The translations under genes were made by a program, and so were the position numbers. This document shows, in pieces, positions 22,577-64,000 of a stretch of DNA of 64,000 nucleotides; within the stretch, counting starts at the first letter, position 1; each line of letters opens with the position of its first letter. The notes below the pieces were generated by a model. The model was not told the origin of the DNA. It saw only the letters and a program-made list of their open reading frames with translations, and made no database searches. Source of the DNA: Candidatus Altimarinota bacterium (GTDB taxonomy: Bacteria > Patescibacteriota > Gracilibacteria > CAIRYL01); assembly GCA_965250085.1 (NCBI GenBank), contig OZ252287.1, positions 576,001-640,000 of the forward strand, given 5' to 3'.

Positions 22577-22618
22577 TTGGTGGATAAGATTGTAGGAGAA
22601 TGCTACTCAGAAAAGCAA

Positions 22619-28658: not shown

Positions 28659-28712
28659 TGAGGAGGAAACAGGAAGACAAAAAAGAGAGATCGGGAAGGA
28701 ACAGATGTACCG

Positions 28713-29150: not shown

Positions 29151-29264
29151 CCTCCGGTGTGTGGTGCGAGGGATGGGAGCCGTGAATGGACGATAAGAAA
29201 GGGCGACCAGAAGGTCGCTCTTTCTTGTTTTACGCCCTGCCACTTCGGAGCTCACCTTTGTTTG

Positions 29265-30794
29265 CTAGTCAATCACCTCCATTCGGAATTCACATCGGGT
29301 CGTGCCGCCCTCGCTTTCATTGACGACTCCATTCTTGATACCTTCGGTGAAACTCGGAATACAAGTTGCTAGGCCAAAGGGCCCTTCGGGGGTCGGGGGA
29401 TGTGTCACGATCCGCTGGTCGCAATCGTGTACCCAGGGAATGAGATCGGGCCAGAACTCCAAGTTCTCACCGTCCATCCATATCCGAATCTCTCTTCCTA
29501 ACGCAACCGTCCCAGTGAATTCGTTACTGCTGCAGTCGGCACTTCCGATTAATTGCCAGTCGCCAAGTTCATTCCGTTGCTGAATCGTAACCCGATCCAT
29601 ACTCGGGGTTGGGGCGTAGTAGATGCTCACATTGTCGATTCGGAAGGTTGTGGGATTGGCTCCGTCAGAAGTACCTTCGAACCATAGTCGCGCTGGATGA
29701 CCCGCGACATGTTCTACCCTGAATCCGTGGCTGACGTATTCTTCTGACCTATCGCCGTTGTCGAAGGTCTCATCCCACCACGTCATGGAATTACTCAGAT
29801 CCGTGATTGATACAGAGAAGATGTCTCTTCTCGGCTCTGGCTGAACGTCTGGCTCCTCTGATTCCACCTGGAGCCAAAATCGCAACAGGGCCGAGTCTGC
29901 ATCGGCGGGAATCGTGAACGACTGCGAGATAGAACCCACAGCTCCGTCCTTGGGCGATCCCGATGCATCCACGCCAACTGCGGCATATCCGGGACTAGTC
30001 CGAAACAACTGCAGGTTCGTTCCGGCCCAGGCATCCCCTACCACGTCCCACTCCGCATCGCCCTCCGTAAAGCTGCCGTTCAGAATTACGTCGTCGAGCC
30101 CAACGGGCGCAGAAGGAACCGGTGGGCATTCGGTAAAGAGATGATTCGCCCCGCAGGTACCGCCATTTTCGGGAGGGTACTCAGAACGCTTTTTCCTTGC
30201 CGAGGAATCTCTCGTTATGTCGTAAGGATCCACCCCTAGTCCTGCCCCGTATCTTCCTCGAAACACTTCCCAATGGAGGTGAATACATTCTTGCTCCGGA
30301 GGCTCGGACTCACAGCTGTCATAGCCCGTGTTTAATGCGTTTGCGAGGTGGTCACCTCGTTTCACTCGAATTCCCGAAGTGAATGGGTCGTTGCTCTTGC
30401 GATATGCCTCCGGGTACCGAAGATATGCTTCGTTCGACTCTAGATGGGCGAAGAGCGAAATGAAATGGTTTCCACTAGCATCAGTCTGATCATGCTTGAG
30501 CAACAAAATATTTCCGTAACCTTTATTTCCAGTGCCTTCCTTATCTCGAATGACCAGACCCGATGCCGGAGCCCTGACCGAAAAAGACAACCACTGGTTG
30601 GCGTTTGAATACTGCCCAAGATAATAGTCGAACGGGAATTCCCCATATCCCCGGTGCGGACCCCAGGAACCATCGTATTGTGTGCCAGCACTCATCCTCA
30701 CATCAGGATCTGCCCATGGGAGAGTGAGGAACTGCTGCGCTACCGTCTCCTGACCTATTAAAAGTGAAATACAAGCGATTAATTGGTGCTTCAT
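29265..30794 (-). CDS. Secreted M23-like peptidase with C-terminal beta-sandwich domains
   Basis: Signal peptide; GYGN, SLFAHL, HLHWEV; NGSFTEG...FRIDNVSI jelly-roll-like domain. Confidence 0.75.
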   Translation of the reverse strand: MKHQLIACISLLIGQETVAQQFLTLPWADPDVRMSAGTQYDGSWGPHRGYGEFPFDYYLGQYSNANQWLSFSVRAPASGLVIRDKEGTGNKGYGNILLLKHDQTDASGNHFISLFAHLESNEAYLRYPEAYRKSNDPFTSGIRVKRGDHLANALNTGYDSCESEPPEQECIHLHWEVFRGRYGAGLGVDPYDITRDSSARKKRSEYPPENGGTCGANHLFTECPPVPSAPVGLDDVILNGSFTEGDAEWDVVGDAWAGTNLQLFRTSPGYAAVGVDASGSPKDGAVGSISQSFTIPADADSALLRFWLQVESEEPDVQPEPRRDIFSVSITDLSNSMTWWDETFDNGDRSEEYVSHGFRVEHVAGHPARLWFEGTSDGANPTTFRIDNVSIYYAPTPSMDRVTIQQRNELGDWQLIGSADCSSNEFTGTVALGREIRIWMDGENLEFWPDLIPWVHDCDQRIVTHPPTPEGPFGLATCIPSFTEGIKNGVVNESEGGTTRCEFRMEVID

Positions 30795-30821
30795 TCAGAC
30801 ACCTCCTTCGGATTTACAAAT

Positions 30822-31610
30822 TTAGTGGAAAGAAAGGCTGTCAATGATGCGCGCGAAGTCAGCGGATTCCATAGTTGTGATATGAGCGGTGACTTCGAGA
30901 AAGAGGGTGCGGTCAGAGTTGAGAAAGAGTCGATGCGCCCCTGTCATAGTGTCAGCGCGAACAAGCAAAGATCCGTCGGCAAACATCTGATCGGAGTCTA
31001 TGTAGTCGTAGCGGCTCACACTTATTGCCCTGAGAGCTTCTTCGCGACTAGAGTCAGGGTAAGGGTTTGCCTCTATCTCGAAGTCTGCATACACCCCCCA
31101 AGGATCTGTACCGCCAACTGTGACTTGATTCTCCCCAGGGGTAGCTCCTTGAAGTAGCTCAGGTGGGAGCCAGAATTCCAGATCGCCAAACTCGACGCGC
31201 CCCCAGTCCGGAATGAGATCTATTGTGATCGGCACCGGTCCCGAATGCGTCCTGCCCTTCTTTCCCGGAAGGTACTCGCGGACATGAAACGTGAAGTCGA
31301 GGGACGCGTGAGGATCATCCTCAGGTATGAGGAAGTTGATCTCGTACGTAATGCTGTCTCCCTTCATAGCCTCGGTCGGACCGTTGGGCTCGATATGGGT
31401 GATGTAGGGCTGACCCTCCGAGCTGACCCACGGATGAGTAAGACCAAGATCTCGTGTGGCCGTGCATGTAATCGTTTCGGTCATCTCCTGACCGAGAACC
31501 GGCTCTAGTTCCAACTTCCTCGGCTCACATTCCATGGCCGGCTTTGCGCTCAGCACTCCTGAGAACAGGGTGAGGATGAGTCCGCTGGCGACAATTGCGA
31601 GTTTTGTCAT
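30822..31610 (-). CDS. Secreted protein with N-terminal Ig-like domain
   Basis: GGAG RBS before MTKLAIV; signal peptide; N-domain resembles that of 32343-33176. Confidence 0.65.
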   Translation of the reverse strand: MTKLAIVASGLILTLFSGVLSAKPAMECEPRKLELEPVLGQEMTETITCTATRDLGLTHPWVSSEGQPYITHIEPNGPTEAMKGDSITYEINFLIPEDDPHASLDFTFHVREYLPGKKGRTHSGPVPITIDLIPDWGRVEFGDLEFWLPPELLQGATPGENQVTVGGTDPWGVYADFEIEANPYPDSSREEALRAISVSRYDYIDSDQMFADGSLLVRADTMTGAHRLFLNSDRTLFLEVTAHITTMESADFARIIDSLSFH

Positions 31611-31757
31611 GTTGTGTCTCCAAGAAAACAGGTCTGGAATTGGTTGCTTTGCGGCATCGGTTATCTCCGTAGATGGCATCGTAGGATACAATGCGGTGAA
31701 TTGTCAATGCAATGGCGAAACAGATTTGCATCATGGCGGTAGGATAAACTCCGCCAT

Positions 31758-32273
31758 ATGAGTGATGAGCACACAGACACAGACCAAGAGCCGGTCGAAG
31801 AGTTGTTCCCGGAACTCAGTGAAAAGGAGCTGCAGCTATTGGCGCTTCTTCTGTTTGATGATCTTTCGCAGGCAGAGTTGGCAAGGCGACTGGAAGCTGC
31901 TGGTCAGACCGGCGATGATCCAAGAGGGGTCAGCCAAGCCACCGTGTCTCGCATGGTCTCCAAGCTGGTGGATCGGTTTGGTCTCCAGAAGCGCTGGACA
32001 GGAGAGTTTTCAGAAAAACACGAAGAGAAGCTCAGAGAGATCTGCGATGGAGTCCTGCGCCATCGAGAGCGTGAGATCTCTTTGGTCGACAAGCTGAAGG
32101 AATTGCAGGAGCCCAAATCAAGACGTCCAGGTTCTCTTCGAGCCGTTCATATTGCTCCTGTGGATGGAGGGGGGAAGAAGGATACGGCATTCAAAGCGGC
32201 TGAAGTAGTCGCTTGGCTGATGAGAAACCAGCCTCAGGTCGTCGGAGTCACTTGGGGCGAGACACCCCAATAA
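31758..32273 (+). pseudogene. Truncated SorC-family sugar-binding transcriptional regulator
   Basis: LSQAELARRL...VSQATVSRMV HTH and VVGVTWGET motif, then stops at 171 aa without the ligand-binding domain. Confidence 0.6.
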
Positions 32274-32342
32274 CACCACGTGGCGCGCCATAAAGAGTTC
32301 CATTTACGCCCAAGAACAGTATGATCAAACAGAGGATACGAT

Positions 32343-33176
32343 TCATAGAACACCTCCGGCCCAAAAGCCGCATGACTCTAAAGTAAGACCGGGCATATAG
32401 AGCCTCATATCCGGAGCCTCTTCCTGAAAGGAACGATATGCGATGGCTCTCGGGTCGGTGTCACGTACGCGGCTGACAATTTCAAACATTGGTGTGGCAG
32501 TACTATCTGGATGCAGGGCCGCTCGAACGCATGCGTCAGCGTTTACCCATTCTTGAGGCGTCGCTTGATGCAGGAGAACTTTCTCTAGCATAGCGGCATA
32601 CCCCAAGAGCGCTTCCCTCTCCAGCGGCTCGGTCCAGTTGAGTTTGATGTAGCGCTCCACATCGTCTCGCACCCCATCCCCATTCGAGTCAACCCCTTCC
32701 AGCGTTGCGTTGTTTAACTCTGGATCTGGCTCTGGAGGCAAACTCTCTTCAAGGGTCGCGACGCCCGTAATTACGAAGGGCAGCGGCTTCGAGAAGACCT
32801 TGGGCTTCTTTGATTTCTTCCCAGCACCTCGACTCTTCGGGCTCGCCTCTCGGATTTTCAACGTCCCATCTTGAATGCCGACGAACGGTGCCGAGAGAAC
32901 GCAGTCGATCGTAACTTCAGTCCCCGCACTCAAGACCGGAAGTTCGTTCGGTGTACAAGCAGTCCACTCATCGAGACTCGGTGTCACTTCGACAATCGTC
33001 TTTGGAAGATGCTCCAGAACATGTAGCGTCAGACGTACCGGCACACGATCACCAACTGCCAAGACGCGATTCACTTCTTTTGGCTCCCAGTCCACATATT
33101 GACTTGCCAGAAGAGGTATTGCCACCAGGGCCAGTGCCGCAAGAGTGAATCCGATTGAGATGATAGTTCTTCGCAT
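32343..33176 (-). CDS. Secreted protein: Ig-like domain plus PDP...GVDSNGDGVRDDVE domain
   Basis: GGAG RBS, signal peptide, DxNxDGxRDD Ca-binding-like motif. Confidence 0.7.
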   Translation of the reverse strand: MRRTIISIGFTLAALALVAIPLLASQYVDWEPKEVNRVLAVGDRVPVRLTLHVLEHLPKTIVEVTPSLDEWTACTPNELPVLSAGTEVTIDCVLSAPFVGIQDGTLKIREASPKSRGAGKKSKKPKVFSKPLPFVITGVATLEESLPPEPDPELNNATLEGVDSNGDGVRDDVERYIKLNWTEPLEREALLGYAAMLEKVLLHQATPQEWVNADACVRAALHPDSTATPMFEIVSRVRDTDPRAIAYRSFQEEAPDMRLYMPGLTLESCGFWAGGVL

Positions 33177-33395
33177 ATTCAGTCTCCTTATTCTCAGGAT
33201 GGACTATATGCTAGCAGAGCACAAATATAGTGTCAACTGAGTCAGCATGCATAAGTATGATTACACATCTATGCTTGCAGCACACACCGACCGCCACGGG
33301 AGTCTTAGCGATGGAAATCACCAGCAATACATGATGCGGAGAAAAACTCCGAAGTTCGCCGACTAGCAGATCGGCTGCGAGAGATGGAAGGAGTC

Positions 33396-34052
33396 TTACT
33401 CCGCTTTCTTGGCTGCCCAGCGCGTTTCAGCTGCCTTTTTCGCAATCTCACTTCTTCTCTTAGGAGTCAAACTGCTTGCGCGAATGCTGCCGCCAAGGCT
33501 TTGAACACTTGAAGATTTCTCATTGACGAGCGAATAGAGACGTCGCCCGATCACGCCAGGGTTTCCATCGTAGCCGCACCAAAACTTCTCCCAGGTACCC
33601 TCGGAGACTCGACCTTCATTACGAGGAGAAAAAAGCTTTTGGGAGCGCACCTCAGCGTATTTCTCATACCGATCGATCGTAACCTTAAACCAAGTAATCG
33701 TATGCTTGGAAAGAGGTTTGTCGATCAGTCGAGCGATCTCATCTGCTGGAGGCTCTCGGCGACTTCGTATGTGGAGCATTCCCAACAGGCTTCGGTCTGC
33801 TTGAGTTAGCTCATTATCTGCATCCAAGACATATCGAACACACTTCTTCCAGCCGTCATAGGTCGCAAGTGAAGCTGGTTTCGTTTCTGCATCAGAAAGC
33901 TCGACTGGTGAATCAGAGTAGAGTAAAACCCAGGTGTCTAGTTGATCGAGAATAGCATCTGCTCGACCAACCAAGTCTTCGAGATGAACGGTAACTTCGT
34001 ACCTGTACTTTCGAAGATTATCCAGCTTTTTGGTGTGTTTGGGCATACTCAT
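33396..34052 (-). CDS. Hypothetical protein with C-terminal GG..RA..L...RR.EIA..AA..RW module
   Basis: Long ORF; start inferred; the basic tail is typical of mobile-element proteins. Confidence 0.6.
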   Translation of the reverse strand: MSMPKHTKKLDNLRKYRYEVTVHLEDLVGRADAILDQLDTWVLLYSDSPVELSDAETKPASLATYDGWKKCVRYVLDADNELTQADRSLLGMLHIRSRREPPADEIARLIDKPLSKHTITWFKVTIDRYEKYAEVRSQKLFSPRNEGRVSEGTWEKFWCGYDGNPGVIGRRLYSLVNEKSSSVQSLGGSIRASSLTPKRRSEIAKKAAETRWAAKKAE

Positions 34053-34799
34053 CCTTCCGATATGTCCGGCGTTCGATAGCAAGATTTCGGCGTTTCCCAA
34101 TCTGGAAATCAGATCCAAATGCCAAAATTTATCGTGCTTTACAACATGGACTTGATCGTGATACCACTGCTTGCTCCCGCGCCCTGCGCAAGATTCCAAT
34201 CAAGTTTAGCATGCTTCTTCTACGGAACATCTTTGACCTTACCGTACAGACACCAAAGGCTTCTACCCACCACTAGTTTCATCGAAGCAAGCATCACCCC
34301 CGCATGCACAACCTGACATTGTGCAAAGAGTTTCCGTCCTTCCGACAAGTCAGGAGAACTCCAACTTTGCACGAATGCTGTGTTGTGCTCAGCGCCCAGA
34401 AAAATTGGAACGCGACTCCGCTAGCCTTCTGCGCGAAGACGCCAGAAGGTCAATATTATCTACCGCCATCCTCCCCGCCACCAACCATCAGCCTCGGCTG
34501 ACAGGTCTTCCACGGTTGACAAGTCTCTCTCGGCTACCAGCCTCTTCACCGACTCTTCCTTCGTGCGCTTCTTCCTGAATTCCTGCAGTCTTCATGAGTT
34601 CCTTTTCTGGTGCACCTTCAAAAGAAAAATTAGAGAACGCGAAGAATCTGGAAGTCACTTGTTTCTAAAGCTTTAGAGCTTCAGGATCTACCCGCTCACC
34701 CCACCCGCTTCCCATATCCGAGTGACGGACACTGCATACGGGTACCCCATGCGGATACCAGAAGAAACACTTCACTCTCCAAACTCCAGACTCCCTCCC

Positions 34800-35987
34800 T
34801 CACCTCTGATGAAGAGCAGCCAATAATTCATCACCGACGAGATCGACCGCACGCCTTACCGGATCATTCGCTAAGTGTGCATATCGAGCCGTGGTTGATG
34901 CTTGTGTATGTCCCAGCATTTTTCCAATAAGTGGAAGTGATAATCCAGCACCAGCTCCGAAGCTGGCATAGGTATGCCGCAAATCATGCAGCCGGACATC
35001 TGCGAGATTCGCTCTCTTCCGGATACGCCCCCAGGGCTTCGAGAGATTCACCAGATGCTGACCTTCTCTGGCTCCCGCAATCACATACGGGTTTCCTTTA
35101 ACACATTCCATCTTCTCCAGAACTGAGAAAACTCCTTCACTGACCACGACTATTCGTTTCCCTGTTTTACTGTCCGGTAAATAGAAACACCGATTGACCT
35201 CATCGATATCTTCCCAACGAAGACGCAGAATCTCATTGAGACGACAGCCGGTGAGAAGGAGGAGACGCAGAGCGGGGACAACACCAGGAAGCTCGGTGGC
35301 TTCCCGTTCCACTTCATCCAGCACGGCACCCAATCGTTTGAGTTCCTCCACGCTCAGAAATCGTTCCCGCTTTTCTTCCGTATATTTCTGGATATGCCGG
35401 CACGGATTTGTACTGTCCTGACGCCAACCCCAAACCTCTGCCAAGTGAAGAGATTTTGAGAGAAGGGCAAGTGTTCTGTTGGCCGCGTAGGGCGTGTCCT
35501 TCATGCCTGTATGCAGACGATCAATATCTTCTCGCGTAATGGCAGACACTTTCCGGCTTCCGAGACGCGGCAATATATGTAGTTCCCACATTCGCTCATC
35601 TGTTTTCGCACTACTCGCTTTTTTCTTCGGCGCATGATCGGACAGATACCGCTTCGCCAAATCCGACATTGTTGGAGACTTCAGCAAATCCATTCGCTCA
35701 CGACTCGGATCTCTTCCGTCCGTTACTTTCCCCAGAACCTTGCGGGCTTTTTTGCGGGCTTCGTCCAGCGTGAGAACTCCGTATTTGCCGAGCACCATGA
35801 TCCGTTTGCGACCCTGAACCCGGTACGACACCACAAACGATTTCTTCCCGCTTCGATAAATCCTCACACCAAAACCGGGCATAGCGTCATCCCATCGGTA
35901 ATCCGGTGTGTTGTTGTTCGAGGAAGCAGAAGAAACAGATGATGGCGAATACGTCATCGCATCAATGGCTCGCTTTGTCAGCTTCAT
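34800..35987 (-). CDS. Tyrosine recombinase/integrase with N-terminal arm-binding domain
   Basis: WDDAMPGFGVRI arm domain; TGCRLNE, DSKTG, HDLRHT, LGH, TARY catalytic residues intact; purine-rich RBS. Confidence 0.93.
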   Translation of the reverse strand: MKLTKRAIDAMTYSPSSVSSASSNNNTPDYRWDDAMPGFGVRIYRSGKKSFVVSYRVQGRKRIMVLGKYGVLTLDEARKKARKVLGKVTDGRDPSRERMDLLKSPTMSDLAKRYLSDHAPKKKASSAKTDERMWELHILPRLGSRKVSAITREDIDRLHTGMKDTPYAANRTLALLSKSLHLAEVWGWRQDSTNPCRHIQKYTEEKRERFLSVEELKRLGAVLDEVEREATELPGVVPALRLLLLTGCRLNEILRLRWEDIDEVNRCFYLPDSKTGKRIVVVSEGVFSVLEKMECVKGNPYVIAGAREGQHLVNLSKPWGRIRKRANLADVRLHDLRHTYASFGAGAGLSLPLIGKMLGHTQASTTARYAHLANDPVRRAVDLVGDELLAALHQR

Positions 35988-36030
35988 TTCCTTCCTCTCT
36001 TCTCCACGCTTTGATCCGAGTTCTGGCAAA

Positions 36031-36303
36031 AAGTAACCACTGAGTAACCACGAGGAATGATCTCACAGCGTTTTCTATCGTAGCATGTGATTTCACTAAG
36101 GACCGATAACACCTTGTTTTATTGAGAGTTATCGCACCGTATCGTATCAAATCGAAGAAAGAAGAATAGGGAAATACCTGATTCGTAATCAATAGGTCAG
36201 CGGTTCAAATCCGCTCGTCGGCTCCATTTTTCTTCTTTAGAATCAAGATCTTATAAAATATCTCCAAAAGATAGGAAAGAGTGAAGTAACCACTGAGTAA
36301 CCA
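36031..36303 (+). other. attP-like site: 20-bp arm repeats flanking a tRNA-Thr(CGT) 3'-half core, with IHF-like boxes
   Basis: AAGTAACCACTGAGTAACCA at 36031-36050 and 36284-36303; TGATTCGTAATCAATAGGTCAGCGGTTCAAATCCGCTCGTCGGCTCCA at 36179-36226; AATCAAGATCTTA (WATCAANNNNTTR) at 36241. Confidence 0.8.
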
Positions 36304-41392: not shown

Positions 41393-41749
41393 CTAGAGAT
41401 CCAGAGATTCTATCGCTTCTTTGAGACTCTCATGATGTTCTACGAGGTTTGTGAATCCTACAAGGGTCAAAATATCTAAAATATGCTCGTTTCCTTCCGC
41501 GAGCATAAGTTTTTTATTTTTCTCTCTCAATTCAGAATACATCCCTGCAAAGTATCCGATCACCATAGAGTTGATGAATTGTAAGTCACGAATATGCATT
41601 ATATATGTCTCCACTTCTTCTTCTTCAAGAAGAGGGGCGAATTCTTTTTTAAACTCTCCAAGATTTGACTCATCAATCTCCCCTGAGAGATAAATTACTT
41701 TCAAATTATTCTTTTCTGGCACATCAATTTTGGAAACTTGATAACTCAT
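41393..41749 (-). CDS. STAS-domain anti-sigma-factor antagonist
   Basis: LSGEIDESN, LQFINSMVIG, ILTLVGF. Confidence 0.8.
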   Translation of the reverse strand: MSYQVSKIDVPEKNNLKVIYLSGEIDESNLGEFKKEFAPLLEEEEVETYIMHIRDLQFINSMVIGYFAGMYSELREKNKKLMLAEGNEHILDILTLVGFTNLVEHHESLKEAIESLDL

Positions 41750-41797
41750 ATATGGTCAAAAAAAGCGATTACAATGTAGTTGGTTTCCATATATTCG

Positions 41798-42343
41798 TCA
41801 ATTATTTTGGTCTGTATCTTGTGAGTAAAAAGAATTGTCATAAACATTCTGTCCCAGAATTTCACGAGCAACTTCTTCATAACGCTGGAGTATATTGCGA
41901 ATTTTTTTTTGTAGTGTTCCATCGCTAGTGTCTCCTGCATGAGTAAAGATCTCTTTAATAACATCCGTAATTTCTTGAGGATATGAATTATCAGAATATC
42001 CATAAGAAAAGTATCTAAAAATTCTCTCAAGCGCTTCACAACACTGACATTCTTCTTGAGACGATATATGTGCTCCATGCTTGAGGGTCATTTTTGTGTG
42101 TTGCAAAACATTTACATCATCTTCTACAGTGGATGTTCTATTTTCTGTTCCTTCTCCTTCTCGATCATGATTTTCTATATCTCTAAGAAATTCTTGTGGT
42201 GTTTGTCCTCTGTATTGTATCCATTGTTCTGGTGGTGCATTGGGGGCATCTAAAGGTGGTCTGAGTTCTGTTTTCAAATTTCCAAAAAGTTCATGCACCC
42301 ACCTATCAGATGCTATCCAACTACCGGAGCGTTTGTTTACCAT
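41798..42343 (-). CDS. Hypothetical protein
   Basis: 181-aa ORF preceded by a consensus promoter. Confidence 0.6.
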   Translation of the reverse strand: MVNKRSGSWIASDRWVHELFGNLKTELRPPLDAPNAPPEQWIQYRGQTPQEFLRDIENHDREGEGTENRTSTVEDDVNVLQHTKMTLKHGAHISSQEECQCCEALERIFRYFSYGYSDNSYPQEITDVIKEIFTHAGDTSDGTLQKKIRNILQRYEEVAREILGQNVYDNSFYSQDTDQNN

Positions 42344-47551: not shown

Positions 47552-48593
47552 CCTCAATTCGAGTTTGAAGTGCACCACCTCGGAAGAATTTAATACTCTA
47601 GGTGCATGAACAACTATGAACACTTCAGTAAGAGCGAGAGACAAGAACTCTTAATACTCCACTCCAAAGGGTATTCGATGAGATCGATAGCCAAAGCGAT
47701 GAACAGGAGTCACTCTACAATCATCAGAGAGCTCAAGCGGAAGATGAAGAGAGGAGGATACGATGCGTGTAAGGCTCATCAAAAAGCACAGAACAAAAGA
47801 AGATTTAGTAAATACCAAGGAATGAAGGTACGTGAGGATGATGAGATAGAGAAGTATATGCGAGAAAAGATGTTGTTAAAATGGTCACCAGAGAAGATTG
47901 CAGGAGTACTGTACTTGGAGAAGAGAGTTCGTATTGGGAAAGATGCCATCTATACATATCTCTACAGTGCACACGGACAAGACCTATGTCCTCTTCTTTA
48001 TCGCAAGAGATATAGGAAGCGTAAACGGAGAAAGAAGAAATCAAAGCATGAAATCATCAAAGATAGAGTGTTTATTGCCCAAAGACCTCAGCATATCAAC
48101 CAGAAGAAAAGATTTGGACACTACGAAGGAGATACCATGGGCAGACCCAAGAAAGCTTCCCCACAAACTCTTGTCATCGTTAGAGAACGACTCTCTCGTA
48201 AAATATTCGTGAAGAAGGTGTCTCGGCTCAGAGAATCCATGCAGGGATTTGGAGACATTCTGCACCAACTCCCTGCATACTCACTTACCTTGGACAACGG
48301 TGTAGAAAACACAAGATATAAAGACTTAAGAATCCCTATTTATTTTTGTGACCCCTACTCTTCTTGGCAAAAAGGCTCTGTAGAAAACGCCATTGGAAAA
48401 CTTAGAAAATTTGTCCCTAAGAAAGCTGACCTCAAGAATTTCTCTCAAAACCAGTTACAATCCTTTGTTGATACTCTTAACAACACTCCCATGAAAGTTC
48501 TCGGCTTTAGAACTCCCACCCATGTCTTTGACTTCTATAACAATCTCTAATATCTTTTTATCCCAAGTGGTGCACTTCACCACAGAATGCGGG
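47552..48593 (+). mobile_element. IS30-family insertion sequence, copy 2 (1042 bp, TSD TAT)
   Basis: Same ends and transposase as copy 1; TAT at 47549-47551 and 48594-48596. Confidence 0.93.
47606..48550 (+). CDS. IS30-family transposase
   Basis: Protein identical to 22662-23606. Confidence 0.95.
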   Translation: MNNYEHFSKSERQELLILHSKGYSMRSIAKAMNRSHSTIIRELKRKMKRGGYDACKAHQKAQNKRRFSKYQGMKVREDDEIEKYMREKMLLKWSPEKIAGVLYLEKRVRIGKDAIYTYLYSAHGQDLCPLLYRKRYRKRKRRKKKSKHEIIKDRVFIAQRPQHINQKKRFGHYEGDTMGRPKKASPQTLVIVRERLSRKIFVKKVSRLRESMQGFGDILHQLPAYSLTLDNGVENTRYKDLRIPIYFCDPYSSWQKGSVENAIGKLRKFVPKKADLKNFSQNQLQSFVDTLNNTPMKVLGFRTPTHVFDFYNNL

Positions 48594-48757
48594 TATCCAA
48601 AAAGGCGATTATAATACGCGCTTATGTTTATTTGTCAAGAAAAATTTTGACAAAATACTCCAGAACAGGGGATTAACCTTATGAAAAACAATTTACAAAG
48701 AATCTTTTTTGAGCTACACTTCCCTCCTTCATTCACGCATATTGCACACATAATAAT

Positions 48758-57256: not shown

Positions 57257-57982
57257 TTACGCTTTTTGCTTTTTGGGGATTTTTGTACTCTCCCACATGT
57301 ATCCTCTTTCTCGAATGGTTCTTAGATGTGTTGAGATTTCTTTTCCGAGAAGTTTTTTCAAGTGTGTCATGTGTACTCTCAATTTATTCTTTTGATCTTC
57401 TTCTCGAGAATTGTCTTCACCCCATACATACGAAATAAGACTTTGATATGTCAAAGGTATATCGGGTTTTTGTAAAAATCTTTTTAGGAGAGTAAAGAGT
57501 ATGTTGCTGGGATACATTTCACGATCTCCAATAATAACCTTACGAAGATCTAAATCCATTTTAACTCCATCATGTTCAAGTACATTTGTGGAATTTTTAT
57601 CACAATGGAATCCTCTTCTTGCAGCCGCTTTTATACGAGCAATAACCTCCTTTGGCTTCCATGGTTTTTTAATAAAATCATCTCCACCAACATCAAGTGC
57701 ATCCCATGGAGTAATTTCATCTATTTTGCGTGCTGTAAGAAAAATAACTGGTGTTTGAATATTTTCTTTCCGTATCTCTTTTATAAGATGGATGCCTTGT
57801 TTCGCATTTTTTTCAGAAGAAAGATAATAATCACATACAATAACATCAAAATTGTCTTTTGTGAGTTTTTGTTTCGCTTCATCGTATGTTTCTGCGGTAT
57901 CGATATCCCATCCTTGCTTCTCAAGATACAACTTTATATTGCGCAAAACAGAAGGCTGATCGTCAATAACAAATACTTTCAT
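57257..57982 (-). CDS. OmpR-family response regulator
   Basis: VIDD, VIVCD, FLTA, KKPW; winged helix (LRVHMTHLKK, TIRERGY). Confidence 0.9.
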   Translation of the reverse strand: MKVFVIDDQPSVLRNIKLYLEKQGWDIDTAETYDEAKQKLTKDNFDVIVCDYYLSSEKNAKQGIHLIKEIRKENIQTPVIFLTARKIDEITPWDALDVGGDDFIKKPWKPKEVIARIKAAARRGFHCDKNSTNVLEHDGVKMDLDLRKVIIGDREMYPSNILFTLLKRFLQKPDIPLTYQSLISYVWGEDNSREEDQKNKLRVHMTHLKKLLGKEISTHLRTIRERGYMWESTKIPKKQKA

Positions 57983-58084
57983 GGAAATAGGGGGTAAAAA
58001 CTTCTGTTTATTATAGAAGCATCTCTCCCAAATTTGCAAATATTAAGACTTTGTTAATATGAACTTTCTATTGGTATTCTACAA

Positions 58085-58663
58085 TTATAGTTCAACTTCA
58101 ATAAACTTTTGCACAAAAGTAACTTTTTTTTCTTCCGCGCCAAAAAGATAGAGCCCTATTTGATATGCGAGTTCTCCATTGTAAAGATTTTCTTTTTGGA
58201 GGCTTTGAGAAATATTTTTGGGCATGAGTTCCTTTTTTGGAGAAAAGTCATGCTGAACGATCAACTTGCAAGGCTCTTTTACAGAGATTCTTACAAAAGA
58301 TGATTTTTGAAAGAGTTTTTGCAGAATATACCTCAGAGCTGTCTCAAAGTAATGACGATCCACAGTAACTTCTACTGTAGGATCGATGTCGACAGTAAGT
58401 TGTATGTAATGAGAAATGATGGTGTCTTCAAGTCCGACGAGAAGAATATCTATGATTTCTCGAAGACACTGCTTTTGTGGAAAGTATTCTGGTTTCTCTC
58501 CGAGTAATATTTCTTCATGCTCAATAAGGACCACTGCAGCCTCAATCAACGGTTGAATTTTTTCTTTACTTCCTGAGAAATGATCGTTTTCTTCACAAAC
58601 CAAAGAAAGAATTGTGCAAATATTGAGAAGTTCATGACGGATAAACTGTTTAGAATCATTCAT
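58085..58663 (-). CDS. Degenerate histidine kinase-like protein (putative His-phosphotransferase)
   Basis: H-box-like FIRHELLN retained; no sensor domain; N, G1 and G2 boxes not recognisable. Confidence 0.6.
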   Translation of the reverse strand: MNDSKQFIRHELLNICTILSLVCEENDHFSGSKEKIQPLIEAAVVLIEHEEILLGEKPEYFPQKQCLREIIDILLVGLEDTIISHYIQLTVDIDPTVEVTVDRHYFETALRYILQKLFQKSSFVRISVKEPCKLIVQHDFSPKKELMPKNISQSLQKENLYNGELAYQIGLYLFGAEEKKVTFVQKFIEVEL

Positions 58664-58790
58664 ACAGAGAATATATGGGATTCTCTTTAAAAAAACTAGT
58701 ATTTGACTTTGTCTATGATCATGAATGTTAGATATTGTGTTTTTAAGCGGTTTAGATGTATATTGCATTCATACAACTCCATATGCAAAT

Positions 58791-59498
58791 ATGAATATTC
58801 TTATCGTGGAAGACGAGGTACCTATAGCACTCTTCGTTCAGAGGATTCTCAAAAAAGTTTCTGTGAGTAATCTTATTGATACCGCTCAGGGTTTCCAGGA
58901 AGCTTTTTCAAAGTTGTTTTCTGATATTTTTGATGTCGTTATCATTGATATTGATTTGGGAAAAGAAAAGCGAACTGGCATTGATCTTTGTGAAATCATC
59001 AGGTCTCGAGATAAATATATCCCAATAATCATTCTTACTGGATTTCACTCTCTTTCGTATATAGAAAAATCTTTTCTTGCGGGTGCAAATGATTACATCA
59101 CAAAGCCATTTCGTCCACGAGAATTAGAATTGAGGGTAGAAAGATGGAAAAAAATTTCGAACCGTAAAAAAGTTGAACAAAACATGGAGTATGAAGAACT
59201 CTCCTATGATATACAAAAAAACGAATTTTTTTTTAAGCATGAAAAACTGAATCTCACAAAAAGAAATAAAGAATTGCTTCTCTTATTTCTCAAAAACCCA
59301 GAAAGCATGCTTTCCTCCCAGTATATCAGAGCAAAATTCTGGGGGGATTCATATGACACGCAAAAGTCACGAAATCTTCGTTCTAATATTCATCTCTTAA
59401 GAAATTCCTTGGAAAACAAATGTGGAAACTGGATTCATACTACGAGGGGTGAGGGATACATATTACAAAAAAACTTTAGCAAATATAATTTTTCTTAA
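58791..59498 (+). CDS. OmpR-family response regulator
   Basis: IVEDE, VVIID, ILTG, GANDYITKPF; TTRGEGY. Confidence 0.9.
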   Translation: MNILIVEDEVPIALFVQRILKKVSVSNLIDTAQGFQEAFSKLFSDIFDVVIIDIDLGKEKRTGIDLCEIIRSRDKYIPIIILTGFHSLSYIEKSFLAGANDYITKPFRPRELELRVERWKKISNRKKVEQNMEYEELSYDIQKNEFFFKHEKLNLTKRNKELLLLFLKNPESMLSSQYIRAKFWGDSYDTQKSRNLRSNIHLLRNSLENKCGNWIHTTRGEGYILQKNFSKYNFS

Positions 59499-59582
59499 AA
59501 AAATATTAAAAATATGAGGATTTGAATGCATTTAGGTTCAATAGTGCTCTATAGTGCTTGAGGGGAGGACTTACTAAGGTCT

Positions 59583-59972
59583 ATGAATCAAAATACTCTC
59601 AAGCACAAAATACTCATTATCGAAGACGACTCCGTCTTCTGCAAAGAGTGCTGTCAGGTGTTTTCGTCTCAAGAATTTGAAGTACAAGCGAGTACTACGA
59701 GTATGGGTGGTATTGTAAAAGCAGTGGAATTTCGTCCTGATGTGATTCTCTTGGATATCGTGATGCCTGAAGTAGATGGATATGAAATTATTGATGCACT
59801 GAGAAATAATTCAAATATGAATGTCATCATAATCGCCTATAGTAACATTACAGAAAACCTTCAAATACATCGTGCTCTTCAGCTTGGGGCAGATGATTTC
59901 TTTTCGAAAAGCACATGTCCGCCTAGTCAGGCTGTGCAGAAAGTCCAGCATATTTTATCTCAAAAAGCATAA
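59583..59972 (+). CDS. Single-domain response regulator (REC)
   Basis: IIEDD, PDVILLDIVMP, YSN, GADDFFSK. Confidence 0.9.
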   Translation: MNQNTLKHKILIIEDDSVFCKECCQVFSSQEFEVQASTTSMGGIVKAVEFRPDVILLDIVMPEVDGYEIIDALRNNSNMNVIIIAYSNITENLQIHRALQLGADDFFSKSTCPPSQAVQKVQHILSQKA

Positions 59973-59991
59973 TATTCATTTTTCATCAAAA

Positions 59992-60354
59992 ATGACAAAA
60001 ATTTTATTTTTGGAAGATGAAAAAACCATTGGCCAAATGTACACAGATGCTTTTAAAAAGGCAGGGCATGATATTCTTTGGGTTACAAATGCAGAAGATG
60101 CTGCACTCAAAGCACGTGAATTCTTTGCCGATGTTGTTATTGCAGATTATGGCATTCAGGGTCATAAAATCTCTGGGCTTGATGTTATCCCTCATATTCG
60201 CAAAAATCTTCCTAACGCCCAAATCATCATGCTTTCAAATTATGGAAAATCTCAAATGGAAGAAGATTGTCTGACCGCCGGGGCAAATCATTATCTTCTC
60301 AAAATAGATACCCCACCTAAAAAATTGGTAGAGTATATTGATCACCTCGTCTGA
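59992..60354 (+). CDS. Single-domain response regulator (REC)
   Basis: FLEDE, VVIAD, MLSN, GANHYLLK. Confidence 0.88.
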   Translation: MTKILFLEDEKTIGQMYTDAFKKAGHDILWVTNAEDAALKAREFFADVVIADYGIQGHKISGLDVIPHIRKNLPNAQIIMLSNYGKSQMEEDCLTAGANHYLLKIDTPPKKLVEYIDHLV

Positions 60355-60363
60355 AATATGCCA

Positions 60364-62493
60364 TTATGAGGGGATTAAAAAGCATACAGTAGCTCCTCCC
60401 CCTGGAGTATTTTCCGCCCAAATCTTGCCACTATGGAGTTTTATTATCTTCTTGCAAAGGTAGAGACCCAGTCCTATCCCCATGCCCATGGTGGCATTTG
60501 TGGTCTGAAACTTATCAAAAACGCTTTCTTTATCTCCATCTGTTATTCCATTTCCATTATCTTGAACACAAATCTTTATGTGATTTTTTTCTTTCGAAAG
60601 CACAAGGTTGATTTTTCCGCCTGAAGGAGTAAATTTCATAGCATTTCCCAAAAGATTGTGAAGCACTTGTCGAATCTGTTCTACATCAATAGAGAGAGTC
60701 TGTTTTTTCTTAAGATTATCTTTAAAAGAAAACTTGTAGGACTTTTCCTTCATCAGAGAAGTAAATTCTTCCGTAATTTCCTGAAGAAAATGAGCGATAT
60801 CAATTTCTTGTGAGAAATATTGTATTTTTCCAAGTTCATACTGTTGTACTTCAAAAAATTTTTCTGTGAGATTTTTGAGATCTTCCAACGCACGAGAAAT
60901 AGTTTTTGTGTCTGAGATAAATTCCGTATCTTCCTCATGTGTATCAATTACATCTTGTAGCTTAAATATTGCAATACTCAGAGGTGTCCTGAGCTCATGT
61001 GCCGCAAGAGTCATAAAATCAGACTGTTGCCTTACCAGTGTTTTTAGTTTTTCTGTTTTTTCTCGGATAATGAATTTGAGCATATCTTTTTCTTCTTCAA
61101 AATTATTCTGGAGAAGAATATTCATGAATGTTGTTTCTAGATTTGGAATGCATTCAAGAATGCTCTCAATTTCTTCCTTTGTGTAAGATGCATCTTTTTC
61201 TTTGTATCCCAGTATAAATATTCCAATAAGCTTTTCTTCTGCAAACAGTGGAAAGCAGAGAGCAACATCGAGCTTTTTGAGAGCAAAGAGTTCAACCTCT
61301 CTTCTTTTTTTTGAGACTGGATTTTTCAGAAAGATTTCCTCTGCCACAAGGACTTTCTTCTTCTTTGTTAACCCTTTTGTAAATTGATTTTTCACATAGA
61401 CAGGAACAGCTATGTTTTTTTTCGTATTTCTGAGTACAAAAACTCTTGCATTTGGAATGTTGAGTTTCATTTCAAAAGTTTGATCCAATAAAGATTGGAG
61501 GTGTTTATATGTGGTGCATGCATATATTTTTGTTCGAAACTTTCGAAGAGCGTTTTTAAAATTTCGAAGGTCAGAAGGAAGAAATTGTGGAAATATTTTG
61601 GAAACTTCTACAAAAGCCCCAAGGGCGATCAGCCCACTGATAATATCTCTAAAAACATGGCTCTTCATGAGAGAAAACATACTGATGCCCTGGTACATAA
61701 GGTAGAAGATAACAAGAAATACACTAAGTAATATGATTTTTCTCACAATATTAAGAGTAATGCTGGAGAGATTAAAGAATCTATACCTATGAATTGAATA
61801 AAAACAAGAGATAACAATAGGGGTTATCCAAACATAGCTATAGATAAATTGAGATTGTATGCCAAAAACGGGGAGTATCCCGTTGCTAACAATCAGAATG
61901 CTAATTGCTATAATAAAGACCCAGAAAGCATTTTCAAATTTCAATTTTTCTAAACCTTGTAAGGAATTCATTTTTTTGAATCCAAGAAAAAAGGTGGTAA
62001 TTAGATAAATAAAAACGTGACTCATATAGATCCAGTATGCTTCTCCAAGTTCTACGTTTGGACCTGCCTCTGTCATAACCTCATTTTTATCTACAAGGGG
62101 TGTAAGCGTTGTGAGGATGGAAAACAATATGACCTCTGCAAACACCACCTTCTTGAGCAAAGGCGAGAATTTAATGGTTTCACGGGGAAAATTGTAGAAA
62201 AATAAAGGAAGACCAAAGAAAAAGAACAGACCTACTGCATAGTTGAGTCTGCCTACGAGCAAAAGATGATCTCCCAAATCGAGATATATGTACATGTACA
62301 GTGTTACTGTCCATAGCAACAAGCCAGCAGAGAATATGGCAAAAGATCTATTGATCCATGCTTTCTTGTTTTGCACTAGAGTAATAACAAGCAACACTAG
62401 ATACAAAATAGTCGTAATGATGTATCCAAGTTTCACCATCTTCTTTGGGTAACGATGATAGGCGAATTGTATCAATTCAAACGGAAAACTCAA
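60364..62493 (-). CDS. Sensor histidine kinase: multi-TM (HisKA_7TM-like) + GAF + HisKA + HATPase
   Basis: Many TM segments; LCFPLFAEEKLIGIFILG GAF; AAHELRTPL, NLLGNAMKF, DNGNGI, GIGLGL; start may be 62439. Confidence 0.92.
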   Translation of the reverse strand: MSFPFELIQFAYHRYPKKMVKLGYIITTILYLVLLVITLVQNKKAWINRSFAIFSAGLLLWTVTLYMYIYLDLGDHLLLVGRLNYAVGLFFFFGLPLFFYNFPRETIKFSPLLKKVVFAEVILFSILTTLTPLVDKNEVMTEAGPNVELGEAYWIYMSHVFIYLITTFFLGFKKMNSLQGLEKLKFENAFWVFIIAISILIVSNGILPVFGIQSQFIYSYVWITPIVISCFYSIHRYRFFNLSSITLNIVRKIILLSVFLVIFYLMYQGISMFSLMKSHVFRDIISGLIALGAFVEVSKIFPQFLPSDLRNFKNALRKFRTKIYACTTYKHLQSLLDQTFEMKLNIPNARVFVLRNTKKNIAVPVYVKNQFTKGLTKKKKVLVAEEIFLKNPVSKKRREVELFALKKLDVALCFPLFAEEKLIGIFILGYKEKDASYTKEEIESILECIPNLETTFMNILLQNNFEEEKDMLKFIIREKTEKLKTLVRQQSDFMTLAAHELRTPLSIAIFKLQDVIDTHEEDTEFISDTKTISRALEDLKNLTEKFFEVQQYELGKIQYFSQEIDIAHFLQEITEEFTSLMKEKSYKFSFKDNLKKKQTLSIDVEQIRQVLHNLLGNAMKFTPSGGKINLVLSKEKNHIKICVQDNGNGITDGDKESVFDKFQTTNATMGMGIGLGLYLCKKIIKLHSGKIWAENTPGGGATVCFLIPS

Positions 62494-62525
62494 TTGAAGA
62501 ATTTTCTGTCTGAATATTTGCTCTT

Positions 62526-63287
62526 TTAAAAATCTTGAAAAACAATGTCGGTGATTTTTAAATGATTTCTTGTAAATTCTATAGCCTTTTCAGGTGTGAA
62601 GTGCTTACACGTATAAATGTCGACAGCAAATCTACTGGTATCCCAATGGGCGATAGTTCCTGAGGTTTCCCAGTGCATCCATGCGGTTAGATTATGGATA
62701 ATGGGATCCGATAGTTTATCCATAAAAAGAACTTTGCATAAACTTTGCATATAATCTCTTATTTGTGCTTCAGAGATTGATTCGCTGAGAATGCCTGCTA
62801 TTGATAATCGCTGTCTCAATATATGAGGTGCCAACTCTCTCCAAGTTTCAGCTCCTGGATTCTGCATCGTTTTATGGACAGTGGTTTCACTTGGAGCGCC
62901 AAAAAAACTCCTAGTATGATCAACGACGGAGGGAATATTTGGAAGTGAAGCAGGTGTAGAAATGTCCACGCTCACAAAAGGGTATGTTTCTTTCTCCTCT
63001 TCATCCCAGGCATAAAGATGGATAGCAGATTGATCTTCTAATGGTACCCAACCCGAAAGTCCATATTTTGGAGAGAGATGAGTTTCTGGAATTCGTATTG
63101 GTTGAATATTTAAGGTGTCGGAAAGCTCTTTTAAATATCTTTGAATTTTTTCAACGCTAGTATCCCCAGAGCTCACGGGCTCTGGGAAAGTAGCTTCTAT
63201 TACGAGCGTGTCCCTCGGGAATGGCGATATCCCTTTTGCAGATTCTGCTTCTTTTGCCGTAGGGATATCTGTTGTATTTTGTGTCAT
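62526..63287 (-). CDS. Tandem S-adenosylmethionine decarboxylase (SpeD)-like protein
   Basis: Two repeats: GLSGWVPLEDQSAIHLYAW...VSVDIST and AWMHWETSG...FAVDIYTCKHF. Confidence 0.7.
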   Translation of the reverse strand: MTQNTTDIPTAKEAESAKGISPFPRDTLVIEATFPEPVSSGDTSVEKIQRYLKELSDTLNIQPIRIPETHLSPKYGLSGWVPLEDQSAIHLYAWDEEEKETYPFVSVDISTPASLPNIPSVVDHTRSFFGAPSETTVHKTMQNPGAETWRELAPHILRQRLSIAGILSESISEAQIRDYMQSLCKVLFMDKLSDPIIHNLTAWMHWETSGTIAHWDTSRFAVDIYTCKHFTPEKAIEFTRNHLKITDIVFQDF

Positions 63288-63313
63288 AAAGGAATTTTAT
63301 TTTCTTATCAAAA

Positions 63314-64000
63314 TCAAGCTGTAGACAGAGTAATTTGATTCACAGGTGGCATCATTCCTTCAACAAACTTTCTTAAATTTTGAAAAGTTATTACTGTTTT
63401 CGTATTTTTATCTGCATATACATCTTGAAAGCCCCAAGCAGACCCCATGATCTTATGTGCCTTGCTTCCCAAAGATGTATAGTTAATGGCGGGAGGATCC
63501 TCTCCTTCCATTTCTTGCAATGCACGGGAAAGCATACTGTGAGCAAGTGGTATAGCCATGCCTGAGCTCCTATGGGGCAATGCAATGCCCCATTCTGACA
63601 TATAAAATACCTGAGATTCATCAGAAATATCGTCATCCGTGCAATCACTCACTTTTTGTAAATATGTTTCGTATTCCAATCCAGGAAACATATCTGCAAG
63701 TTTATCTTCCCAAATCTGTTGAAAGTTTGTATACCAACCATAACAAAATCCAACGAGTGATTGTTGTTGTCTGGAAAAAAGAAAGATAGCGAATATCTGT
63801 TTCTGAAAACTCTCAATAATGCTCTGTAATGTTTTTTGTATAGGGTAAAATAAGCCCATGGGCTCAGAGCATGCTGGACATAAATAATCAGAGGGATTTA
63901 CCGGCCTCGTTCTTTCTAATTCAACCAAGGATGAGTTTTGTTGGCTTAGTGAAATATAAACATCCGATATACCAAGTACTTCTGAGCAACTTCTACGAAC
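63314..64000 (-). CDS. GNAT-fold acyltransferase-like protein with a Cys motif (5' end beyond window)
   Basis: LVGFCYG, FYMSEWGIALPHRSSGMA (motif A-like), WGF; CPAC; frame open to the window end. Confidence 0.6.
   Translation of the reverse strand, partial: VRRSCSEVLGISDVYISLSQQNSSLVELERTRPVNPSDYLCPACSEPMGLFYPIQKTLQSIIESFQKQIFAIFLFSRQQQSLVGFCYGWYTNFQQIWEDKLADMFPGLEYETYLQKVSDCTDDDISDESQVFYMSEWGIALPHRSSGMAIPLAHSMLSRALQEMEGEDPPAINYTSLGSKAHKIMGSAWGFQDVYADKNTKTVITFQNLRKFVEGMMPPVNQITLSTA

Follow-up and report, generated by a model that had tools for sequence, protein, structure and literature searches.

Eight consecutive genes at positions 57257-64000 of a 64,000-nt stretch of the genome of Candidatus Altimarinota bacterium (contig OZ252287.1, positions 576,001 to 640,000; hereafter the window) bring together two putative enzymes, a membrane histidine kinase (HK) and a set of putative phosphotransfer proteins. 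The enzymes are a GNAT-fold protein (ORF8) and a tandem protein resembling SpeD, the S-adenosylmethionine decarboxylase (AdoMetDC), which we call ORF7. The reading we favour, with a probability of roughly 45%, is that the two enzymes make up a small-molecule module, which the locus ties to a membrane sensor kinase dedicated to it and to a phosphorelay with branches. Two findings carry it. ORF8 and ORF7 form a functional unit, being adjacent in all five genome loci that carry a tandem SpeD-like gene and fused into one polypeptide in some organisms; and the pair, or a sister cassette, is co-oriented with a multi-transmembrane kinase and accompanied by a receiver in four other genomes of the Candidate Phyla Radiation (CPR), two for each cassette type. 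The signalling hardware is familiar; new is that it is joined to a pair of uncharacterised enzymes found repeatedly in different phyla.

The eight genes are as follows, with E values from Pfam searches.

57257-57982, minus strand: RR1, OmpR-type response regulator (Response_reg E 4.1e-23, Trans_reg_C E 7.2e-11); the open frame extends to 58039
58085-58663, minus strand: psHK, kinase-core-like protein of 192 residues, recognised by fold and His box; the open frame extends to 58768
58791-59498, plus strand: RR2, OmpR-type response regulator (Response_reg E 3.2e-21, Trans_reg_C E 6.4e-14); the open frame starts from 58725
59583-59972, plus strand: REC1, single-domain receiver (Response_reg E 1.6e-19)
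59992-60354, plus strand: REC2, single-domain receiver (Response_reg E 3.9e-15); the open frame starts from 59872
60364-62439/62493, minus strand: HK, multi-transmembrane HisKA sensor histidine kinase (HATPase_c E 6.5e-27)
62526-63287, minus strand: ORF7, tandem SpeD/AdoMetDC-like protein of 253 residues (AdoMet_dc 41 bits, two stretches)
63314 to beyond 64000, minus strand: ORF8, GNAT-fold protein of 316 residues in full (AlphaFold model and Foldseek)

All eight are present as contiguous open frames, as a preliminary description made from the sequence letters had it. Internal starts are likelier for RR1 (57982), psHK (58663), RR2 (58791) and REC2 (59992), and HK probably begins at Met19 (62439), as its homologues do in the alignment. 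ORF8, ORF7 and HK follow one another on the minus strand with gaps of 26 bp and 32 bp (the latter 86 bp if counted from HK Met19), in agreement with the co-orientation and the gaps of about 25-90 bp previously stated. A promoter and terminator scan, whose counts did not exceed those of shuffled sequence (19 versus 23.1 ± 5.0 promoters; 5 versus 3.8 ± 2.0 terminators), placed no minus-strand terminator-like site inside this run. ORF8 runs off the end of the window; since the full protein, P0031, has 316 residues, its start lies by arithmetic about 264 nt past the window end. On the other side of HK, RR1 sits directly downstream of psHK in the same orientation, the run RR2-REC1-REC2 (RR2 first) is divergent from psHK, and REC2 is convergent with HK. 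Rfam and tRNA scans gave no match within the locus.

ORF8 and ORF7 as a putative enzyme pair

Neither Pfam (E<=0.01) nor NCBIfam offers a match to ORF8, the models for Autoind_synth, FeeM and Acetyltransf_5 included, and its family is rare, given that only 77 relatives at E<=1e-3 (39 at <=1e-10 and 8 at <=1e-30) were found among 1.84 billion cluster representatives. An alignment of 43 of these 77, chosen for being near full length (alignment A2), shows conserved R74, W82, E84, Y85, G172 and R232 together with four cysteines, C88, C93, C129 and C132, in an insert that looks like a zinc ribbon. On this alignment AlphaFold returned a confident model (pLDDT 90.6, pTM 0.88), predicted to have the GNAT fold with its mixed beta-sheet and beta4-alpha3 cofactor site. 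Of the 160 PDB matches to the model that Foldseek found at E<=1e-3, nearly all the listed ones are acyltransferases of the GNAT superfamily, among them tRNA-acetylating toxins (7byy, TacT), the protein acetyltransferases Naa60 and NatD, arylalkylamine N-acetyltransferase and FeeM. The earlier GNAT-like call thus holds on the strength of model and fold matches, not of family models. One relative, P0080, gave a match to Acetyltransf_1 below the Pfam cut-off (E 8.4e-4), and the region of the cofactor-binding CoA motif reads R-S-S-G-M-A in ORF8 of the window.

ORF7, by comparison, is recognised by sequence: it matches AdoMet_dc (PF02675) at 41.0 bits against a cut-off of 25, above the gathering score and in two stretches, which substantiates the tandem AdoMetDC-like description. 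Its family counts 30 proteins at E<=1e-3 among 366 candidates, 27 of which make up alignment A1. The closest relatives are the metagenome proteins P0002-P0010, 41-55% identical in that alignment. Two motifs are invariant in it, H205-W-E-T-S-G210 and I224-Y-T-C227, both in the C-terminal half. The Ser of HWETSG is found in 27 of 27 sequences of A1 and in 10 of 10 of alignment A5, and is preceded by Thr, or by Ser in P0043. Going by the motif spacing of canonical SpeD, rather than by a tool's alignment, we take this residue, Ser209, to stand at the place of the canonical pyruvoyl-forming Ser.

The two halves of ORF7 are complementary. When set against the family of single-domain SpeD-like proteins (113 residues) with hhalign, the C half aligned at a probability of 100 with 47% identity and the N half at 99.8 with 38%. 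The single-domain protein carries five motifs (THxSxxYGWxGW, HWETSG, HFYAWD, FFSVD and IYTCK). In ORF7 these are divided, with the first, third and fourth retained in the N half (as THLSxKYGxSGW, HxYAWD and FxSVD) and HWETSG and IYTCK in the C half. Because the halves have lost complementary motifs, ORF7 would be a pseudo-heterodimer with one composite active site. Tandem SpeD fusions (SpeD1-SpeD2) as such have been described, and the same paper reports SpeD homologues that act as arginine or ornithine decarboxylases in CPR bacteria and other phyla (Li et al. 2023, PMC10407285). Other candidates for ORF7 were discarded: OXA beta-lactamases and RRM proteins appeared as structure matches at chance level only (E 0.0075 or weaker), and a canonical polyamine operon was rejected, there being no speE nearby. 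A spermidine-synthase domain was found neither in the 54 ORFs of the window nor among the neighbours of the five tandem loci described below.

That ORF8 and ORF7 belong together is seen across genomes. A motif scan gave 57 pattern matches, 45 of which were confirmed as loci, five with a tandem SpeD-like gene (L001, L002, L003, L004 and L015) and 40 taken as single-domain; the single-domain protein has about 113 residues in cleanly called loci, longer calls in high-GC loci being probable start over-extensions. The A2 profile of ORF8 matches exactly five of the 45 loci. These are the five tandem ones, and in each the match lies beside the SpeD-like gene, co-oriented with it in four and divergent in L003. 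Furthermore, two proteins, P0043 (525 residues) and P0034 (583 residues), are fusions of an ORF8-like N-terminus to a tandem SpeD-like C-terminus, 40% and 45% identical to ORF7, respectively, over some 230 residues, and their domain order is the gene order of the window. P0043 reads HWESSG, so that the Thr of the motif can evidently vary while the Ser stays. A predicted complex of ORF8 and ORF7 (A2 plus A1) gave no answer (score 0.00) and has no weight either way.

These properties bear on an alternative in which the pair makes no small molecule at all. ORF8 might acetylate a protein, such as a receiver or the kinase, or a tRNA, with ORF7 as a non-catalytic regulatory subunit that binds S-adenosylmethionine (SAM) or an amine. 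At the top of the ORF8 fold matches there are indeed GNAT toxins that acetylate tRNA and acetyltransferases of protein N-termini (7byy, TacT, Naa60, NatD), a four-Cys ribbon is of a kind that often contacts macromolecules, and ORF7 lacks the canonical E-S site. Yet HWETSG and IYTC are strictly invariant, as is usual for an active site and not for one in decay, fold ranks at TM-scores of 0.3-0.4 do not separate GNAT substrates, and neither a match to a defence or toxin model nor an antitoxin-like partner was seen. We consider this alternative quite improbable. As for the PADLOC defence models, ORF8, ORF7, psHK and the genes of the sister cassette had no match, and the kinase had only a generic HATPase match. 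A GNAT toxin-antitoxin pair was accordingly rejected, ORF8 being 316 residues long, unmatched by PADLOC and without a small antitoxin beside it.

Linkage to signalling genes in other genomes

To read the counts that follow, it should be kept in mind that gene calls at these loci are crude (longest non-overlapping ORFs), that several contigs are short, that five long ORFs were omitted from one neighbour scan and that there is no matched background rate.

The closest syntenic relative of the locus is L002 (Candidatus Peribacteria), where the SpeD-like and ORF8-like genes are followed by a kinase 40% identical to HK (phmmer E 1e-160) and then by REC2-like, psHK-like and RR1-like genes. In L015 (Patescibacteria group), the SpeD-like and ORF8-like genes are likewise followed by the kinase (E 2e-111) and a receiver. 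Linkage of enzymes and kinase in relatives is one of the points on which the preliminary description had staked its proposal; it is present in both, so that this check did not refute the proposal. Among the remaining tandem loci, a gene 114 bp downstream of the pair encodes a hemerythrin-receiver protein in L004, and in L003 a hybrid kinase lies 1.2 kb away. All told, a signalling protein lies within about 4 kb in four of the five tandem loci and in at least 11 of the 40 single-domain loci, that is, in at least 15 of 45.

The single-domain loci contain a sister cassette. The SpeD-like gene (AdoMet_dc E 8e-10 to 2e-12) is directly followed by a gene for a partner of about 270 residues in 30 of the 40, cleanly in 28 and cut or split in two (L021, L036), and two further loci have a copy of the partner about 2.1-2.9 kb upstream. 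This partner has weak matches to Acetyltransf_5 (E 0.007-0.08, three of eight proteins) and TIGR03694 (E 6e-6 to 0.2, five of six), and in an Atlas features search, to be taken as a lead only, its nearest clusters were GNAT, FeeM and AHL-synthase ones (0.93-0.96). In L008 (Saccharibacteria) and L019, the cassette again precedes a kinase: next to a divergent receiver, SpeD-like and acyltransferase-like genes are followed by one for a 7TM-GAF-HisKA protein. Enzyme genes and then a multi-transmembrane kinase gene, all on one strand and 0-117 bp apart, are thus found in five CPR genomes, the window included, and the kinases are 22-40% identical. Because relatives keep this linkage, the enzyme pair and the kinase are a good candidate for a home-made signal and its receptor.

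Other sister cassettes adjoin different signalling proteins. L024 has a HAMP kinase and an OmpR regulator next to the cassette and L011 a protein with HATPase_c. In seven loci the neighbour is a cyclic di-GMP (c-di-GMP) enzyme, namely a GGDEF-EAL protein in L014, L017, L032, L033, L040 and L044 and an EAL protein in L045. Four of the GGDEF-EAL proteins (L017:11199-13529, L032:13798-16140, L044:7265-9610 and L040:3354-5753), from Acidobacteria, Thermoleophilia, Acidimicrobiales and Ferrimicrobium, share an unannotated N-terminal domain of about 330 residues that has many hydrophobic segments and is homologous across the four (phmmer E 1e-21 to 1e-71). Since the cassette repeatedly pairs with different sensor-output proteins, kinases as well as GGDEF-EAL proteins, in several phyla, it suggests a general, unrecognised small-molecule signalling module.

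We weighed this against a more conventional arrangement of regulator and targets, in which the kinase senses an unrelated external cue and the two-component system controls an enzyme pair with a metabolic or stress role, for example a polyamine or other biogenic amine made or inactivated by decarboxylation and N-acetylation. Structural genes are commonly co-transcribed with their own sensor genes, and the co-transcription of enzymes and kinase fits plain regulation of the enzymes too. The locus does have OmpR-type regulators, and the ORF8 fold matches include arylalkylamine and spermine N-acetyltransferases (ranks 5, 6 and 41). SpeD homologues of the arginine/ornithine decarboxylase type in CPR bacteria and other phyla, as reported in PMC10407285, would also suit such a role. 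In other phyla, however, the cassette adjoins GGDEF-EAL, hemerythrin-receiver or single-domain receiver proteins, none with a DNA-binding domain and for that reason a poor fit to plain transcriptional control, and there is no DNA-binding regulator near the cassette in L008, L015 and L019. Neither the window nor the surroundings of the five tandem loci yielded a spermidine synthase or any other polyamine gene. The position of the sister cassette beside GGDEF-EAL proteins in particular argues for a ligand maker plus sensor over a regulator plus target genes, and we think the conventional arrangement less likely than not, though a serious rival.

Several loci held further genes of note. A soluble protein of about 820 residues with no Pfam match is encoded directly downstream of the cassette in L020 (11545-13986), L027 (11715-14306) and L030 (6481-8967), the three being similar over their N-terminal 340 residues (phmmer E 1e-20 to 1e-38). 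Divergent from the cassette of L015, a CHASE2-adenylate/guanylate cyclase and a small cNMP-binding protein constitute a second signalling module (region 7354-9756). In L043 (Angustibacter sp.), about 4.5 kb separate the cassette from a gene of the AfsA type (A-factor biosynthesis; 14959-15870), with genes for TetR and IclR regulators nearby; this may be coincidence. Where the 270-residue partner is missing, the SpeD-like gene is followed in L012 (9965-12358) by a 367-residue protein without a match and then a class I/II aminotransferase, and in L013 (10387-11001) by a 204-residue protein with a marginal ATP-grasp match.

Kinase, receivers and the candidate relay

HK has about seven hydrophobic segments in its first 290 residues by hydropathy scan, then a GAF-like region, HisKA with His499, and HATPase_c. 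The multi-transmembrane part of its earlier description therefore stands; the GAF part is marginal in HK itself (GAF_2 E 6.4e-3, 17 bits against a cut-off of 28.6) and clear only in the kinases of L008 and L019, which carry both HisKA_7TM and GAF. HisKA of HK is below the gathering score (E 1.5e-4, 22.2 bits against 26.9), and there is no HisKA_7TM match. In an alignment of HK with the kinases of L002, L015, L008 and L019 (A4), HELRTPL with His499, N613, N617 and G672/674/676 are invariant, so that HK has the H, N, G1 and G2 boxes of a HisKA-type kinase. The membrane part, where the L008 and L019 kinases align with HK as well, also contains invariant residues, including a conserved hydrophilic loop.

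When eight receivers are aligned, all four of the locus are seen to retain the acidic residue, phospho-Asp, Thr/Ser and Lys (D, D, S, K in REC1 and REC2), just as had been noted for their acidic pockets and catalytic residues. RR1 and RR2 combine such a receiver with a winged-helix Trans_reg_C domain, as OmpR-family regulators do; many OmpR-family NCBIfam models match RR2, every one below its cut-off, and since no equivalog cut-off was reached we give neither regulator a specific orthologue name. REC2 has an orthologue beside the kinase in L002 (phmmer E 2.7e-33) and L015 (E 2.3e-20). REC1 finds its best locus matches in the receivers of L008 (E 2.7e-17) and L019 (E 1.5e-15), and no counterpart of it was seen in L002 or L015. 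The pair psHK-RR1 recurs in L002, where 15147-15848 matches RR1 at E 1.8e-52.

psHK is the least familiar of these proteins. It has no match in Pfam (Hpt, PF01627, included), NCBIfam or the sequences of the PDB, and a profile search against solved structures gave chance matches only. Two relatives were found, P0109 and L002:14440-15042 (E 1.5e-19), and the His of its box FIRHELLN is invariant in all three sequences (alignment A3). The model, of low confidence (pLDDT 58), consists of two long helices forming a hairpin, followed by an alpha/beta domain. At E<=1e-3 Foldseek returned 182 matches, the listed ones being in their great majority kinase cores or kinase-like regions built from a helical-hairpin (DHp) and an ATP-binding (CA) domain, among them ZraS, HK853 and the pseudo-kinases RetS and DivL. 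hhalign placed residues 57-183 weakly on the CA domain of the kinase family (Prob 17.5%, E 1.4e-3), where other residues stand in place of the N-box Asn and of the glycines of G1 and G2. Its Atlas neighbours are small hypothetical proteins, with some clusters having 19% members with HisKA or 26% with HATPase_c. The preliminary description had called psHK a kinase-dead His protein. In terms of fold, of the conserved His and of the absent ATP motifs this is a reasonable assignment, if only a moderately supported one, and the sequence leaves psHK a candidate for either a His phosphotransferase or a phosphatase/pseudo-kinase.

The relay could be simpler than four steps. psHK might be a dedicated phosphatase or inhibitor acting on RR1 in the manner of RetS or DivL, with HK phosphorylating the OmpR regulators directly and the receivers serving as sinks or protein-binding outputs. 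RetS and DivL are among its top fold matches, the H-E-x-x-N of psHK is what we take to be the HisKA phosphatase motif, and L015, L008 and L019 have kinase and receiver without psHK. Against this, a non-hybrid kinase, a stand-alone receiver and a DHp-type His protein are the Spo0F/Spo0B parts list, and exactly the four parts kinase, REC2, psHK and RR1 are kept together in L002, which leads us to favour the four-part relay. The simpler scheme, which concerns the relay only, is one we would bet against, but not heavily.

We infer, then, a decarboxylation by ORF7, an N-acylation by ORF8, the sensing of their product and an order for the relay. ORF7 would be a decarboxylase of the pyruvoyl type. 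Its one active site would be composite, the C half contributing Ser209 (HWETSG, the pyruvoyl precursor) and Cys227 (IYTCK) and the N half the complementary face. ORF7 would convert an amino acid or S-adenosylmethionine to an amine, which ORF8 would N-acylate or N-acetylate. Either the membrane domain or the GAF-like region of the co-transcribed HK might detect the product or its precursor, upon which HK would autophosphorylate on His499; from there the phosphoryl group would pass to REC2, on to the His of psHK and finally to RR1, as in the logic of Spo0F, Spo0B and Spo0A. RR2 and REC1 might constitute a lineage-specific second output or a phosphate sink. The molecule might act between cells, like an autoinducer, or only inside its producer; the cytoplasmic GAF-like region of HK would equally permit intracellular sensing, and sensing of a quorum or a host is one reading among several.

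A number of observations weigh against this proposal. On the side of the enzymes, the ORF7 family reads E-T-S where canonical SpeD has E-S, and sequence and profile searches with the SpeD-like proteins against solved structures reached no SpeD, a sign that the family has diverged far and may not be catalytic. ORF8 lacks a GNAT HMM match, and the R/Q-x-x-G-x-G/A CoA motif is conserved family-wide only at the Arg. Eight of the 40 single-domain loci have no acyltransferase-like partner, and homology between the ORF8 family and the 270-residue partner is not detectable (hhalign Prob 0.7%). On the side of signalling, the membrane domains of HK and of the GGDEF-EAL proteins are not homologous (hhalign Prob 0.2%), RR2 and REC1 are absent from L002, and L015, L008 and L019 have neither psHK nor a DNA-binding regulator nearby. 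The evidence for psHK itself is weak, amounting to three sequences, a model at pLDDT 58 and an hhalign probability of 17.5%.

The linkage, finally, is not universal. L001 has the pair without a signalling neighbour, and for about 29 of the 45 loci none was seen. Together with the lack of a formal background control, this is what speaks for a merely fortuitous adjacency of enzymes and signalling genes. That the order of enzymes and then kinase recurs in five CPR genomes including the window, with two non-homologous acyltransferase partners and with kinases only 22-40% identical, speaks against it, and we already regard chance adjacency as very improbable indeed.

A bolder form of the coupling we favour would have the SpeD-like/GNAT pair be a new class of signal synthase, whose released N-acyl amine, derived from an amino acid or SAM, is read by the co-transcribed kinase. 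CPR/Patescibacteria would then have an autoinducer system of their own, and in Actinomycetota and Acidobacteriota sister versions of it would be connected to c-di-GMP enzymes. We hold this version to be unlikely as it stands. Full-text literature searches, which did not extend to papers in subscription journals, turned up neither the SpeD-like/GNAT cassette or its tie to two-component systems in CPR bacteria nor a description of a self-made signal and receptor in these organisms, and the searched passages of the Peribacteria genome paper (PMC4736985) mention neither two-component systems nor decarboxylases. What is at stake is a possible signalling system in bacteria with tiny genomes and few regulators. 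If the proposal is true, the SpeD-like/GNAT pair would also extend the neofunctionalisations of AdoMetDC beyond polyamine synthesis.

Surroundings of the locus and comparison with known systems

All two-component genes of the window are concentrated at the locus: such domains occur in five of its eight genes, to which psHK may be added without a Pfam match, and in none of 54 other ORFs. The only other regulator-like gene noticed encodes a STAS-domain protein of the anti-sigma-antagonist type (41393-41749), beside a 181-residue ORF without a match (region 41393-42343). The remainder of the window consists of housekeeping genes and a mobile island. This island (27089-36100) has a GC content of 0.47-0.54 against about 0.38 elsewhere, starts right after tRNA-Ala (27089-27165) and encodes a recombinase-like ORF (27320-28165), a tyrosine integrase (34800-36029) and several ORFs without a Pfam match; probably it is a mobile element that has integrated here and whose donor had a different base composition. 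Two inverted copies of a 1043-nt sequence, 100% identical and each encoding a 314-residue HTH_38 (IS30-like) protein, lie at 22618-23660 and 47552-48594. They bracket 23.9 kb including the island, an arrangement that might be like a composite transposon or serve as a substrate for inversion.

Among known systems, the putative phosphotransfer proteins resemble the sporulation phosphorelay of Bacillus subtilis, KinA-Spo0F-Spo0B-Spo0A, in that both comprise a non-hybrid kinase, a stand-alone receiver and a DNA-binding regulator, and psHK may answer to its His-bearing helical-hairpin protein, whose ATP-lid domain is degenerate. They differ in that the outputs here are of the OmpR type, that there are two receivers and two regulators, and that psHK shows no sequence similarity to Spo0B (no Pfam match). 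A similarly branching parts list is provided by CckA-ChpT-CtrA/CpdR of Caulobacter, where ChpT, a pseudo-kinase with a DHp and a CA-like domain, serves two recipients, a regulator of the OmpR family and a single-domain receiver. Unlike the separate receiver gene of our locus, the hybrid CckA has a receiver of its own. Moreover, the fold matches listed for psHK are ordinary kinases together with RetS and DivL, so that the likeness to ChpT is one of parts only.

With regard to the position of the enzymes, there is a parallel in the synthase-receptor operons with multi-transmembrane kinases, agrBDCA, comQXPA, LuxM/LuxN and CqsA/CqsS. In these, too, one or more biosynthetic genes stand upstream of or beside a polytopic kinase, with a receiver adjacent. 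In contrast, the enzymes of the window are SpeD-like and GNAT, a peptide precursor gene is absent, and that the kinase senses their product is here a proposal.

The enzymes themselves have relatives of a more distant kind. According to PMC10407285, SpeD1-SpeD2 fusions and the eukaryotic class 2 AdoMetDC likewise have two SpeD-fold halves per chain, one of them sometimes degenerate, and in the fusions described there, which are encoded upstream of speE, the genuine AdoMetDC is the N half. ORF7 differs from these fusions in that its N half has lost the Ser and Cys motifs while the C half keeps them, and by its E-T-S motif, its GNAT partner and the absence of speE nearby. As to ORF8, synthases of the FeeM/LuxI type share its GNAT fold, with FeeM (2g0b) at rank 32 of its fold matches (E 1.2e-4), and the partner in the sister cassette has its weak Acetyltransf_5/TIGR03694 matches and its FeeM and Autoind_synth Atlas neighbours on that same side. 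ORF8 departs from them in having no HMM match and in its four-Cys insert. Arylalkylamine and polyamine N-acetyltransferases are among the top fold matches of ORF8 (4fd6 and 4fd5 at ranks 5-6, 5yag at rank 41), at identities of 8-13% and TM-scores over the query of 0.35-0.41 that do not single them out; the amines that these enzymes N-acetylate are made by amino-acid decarboxylases.

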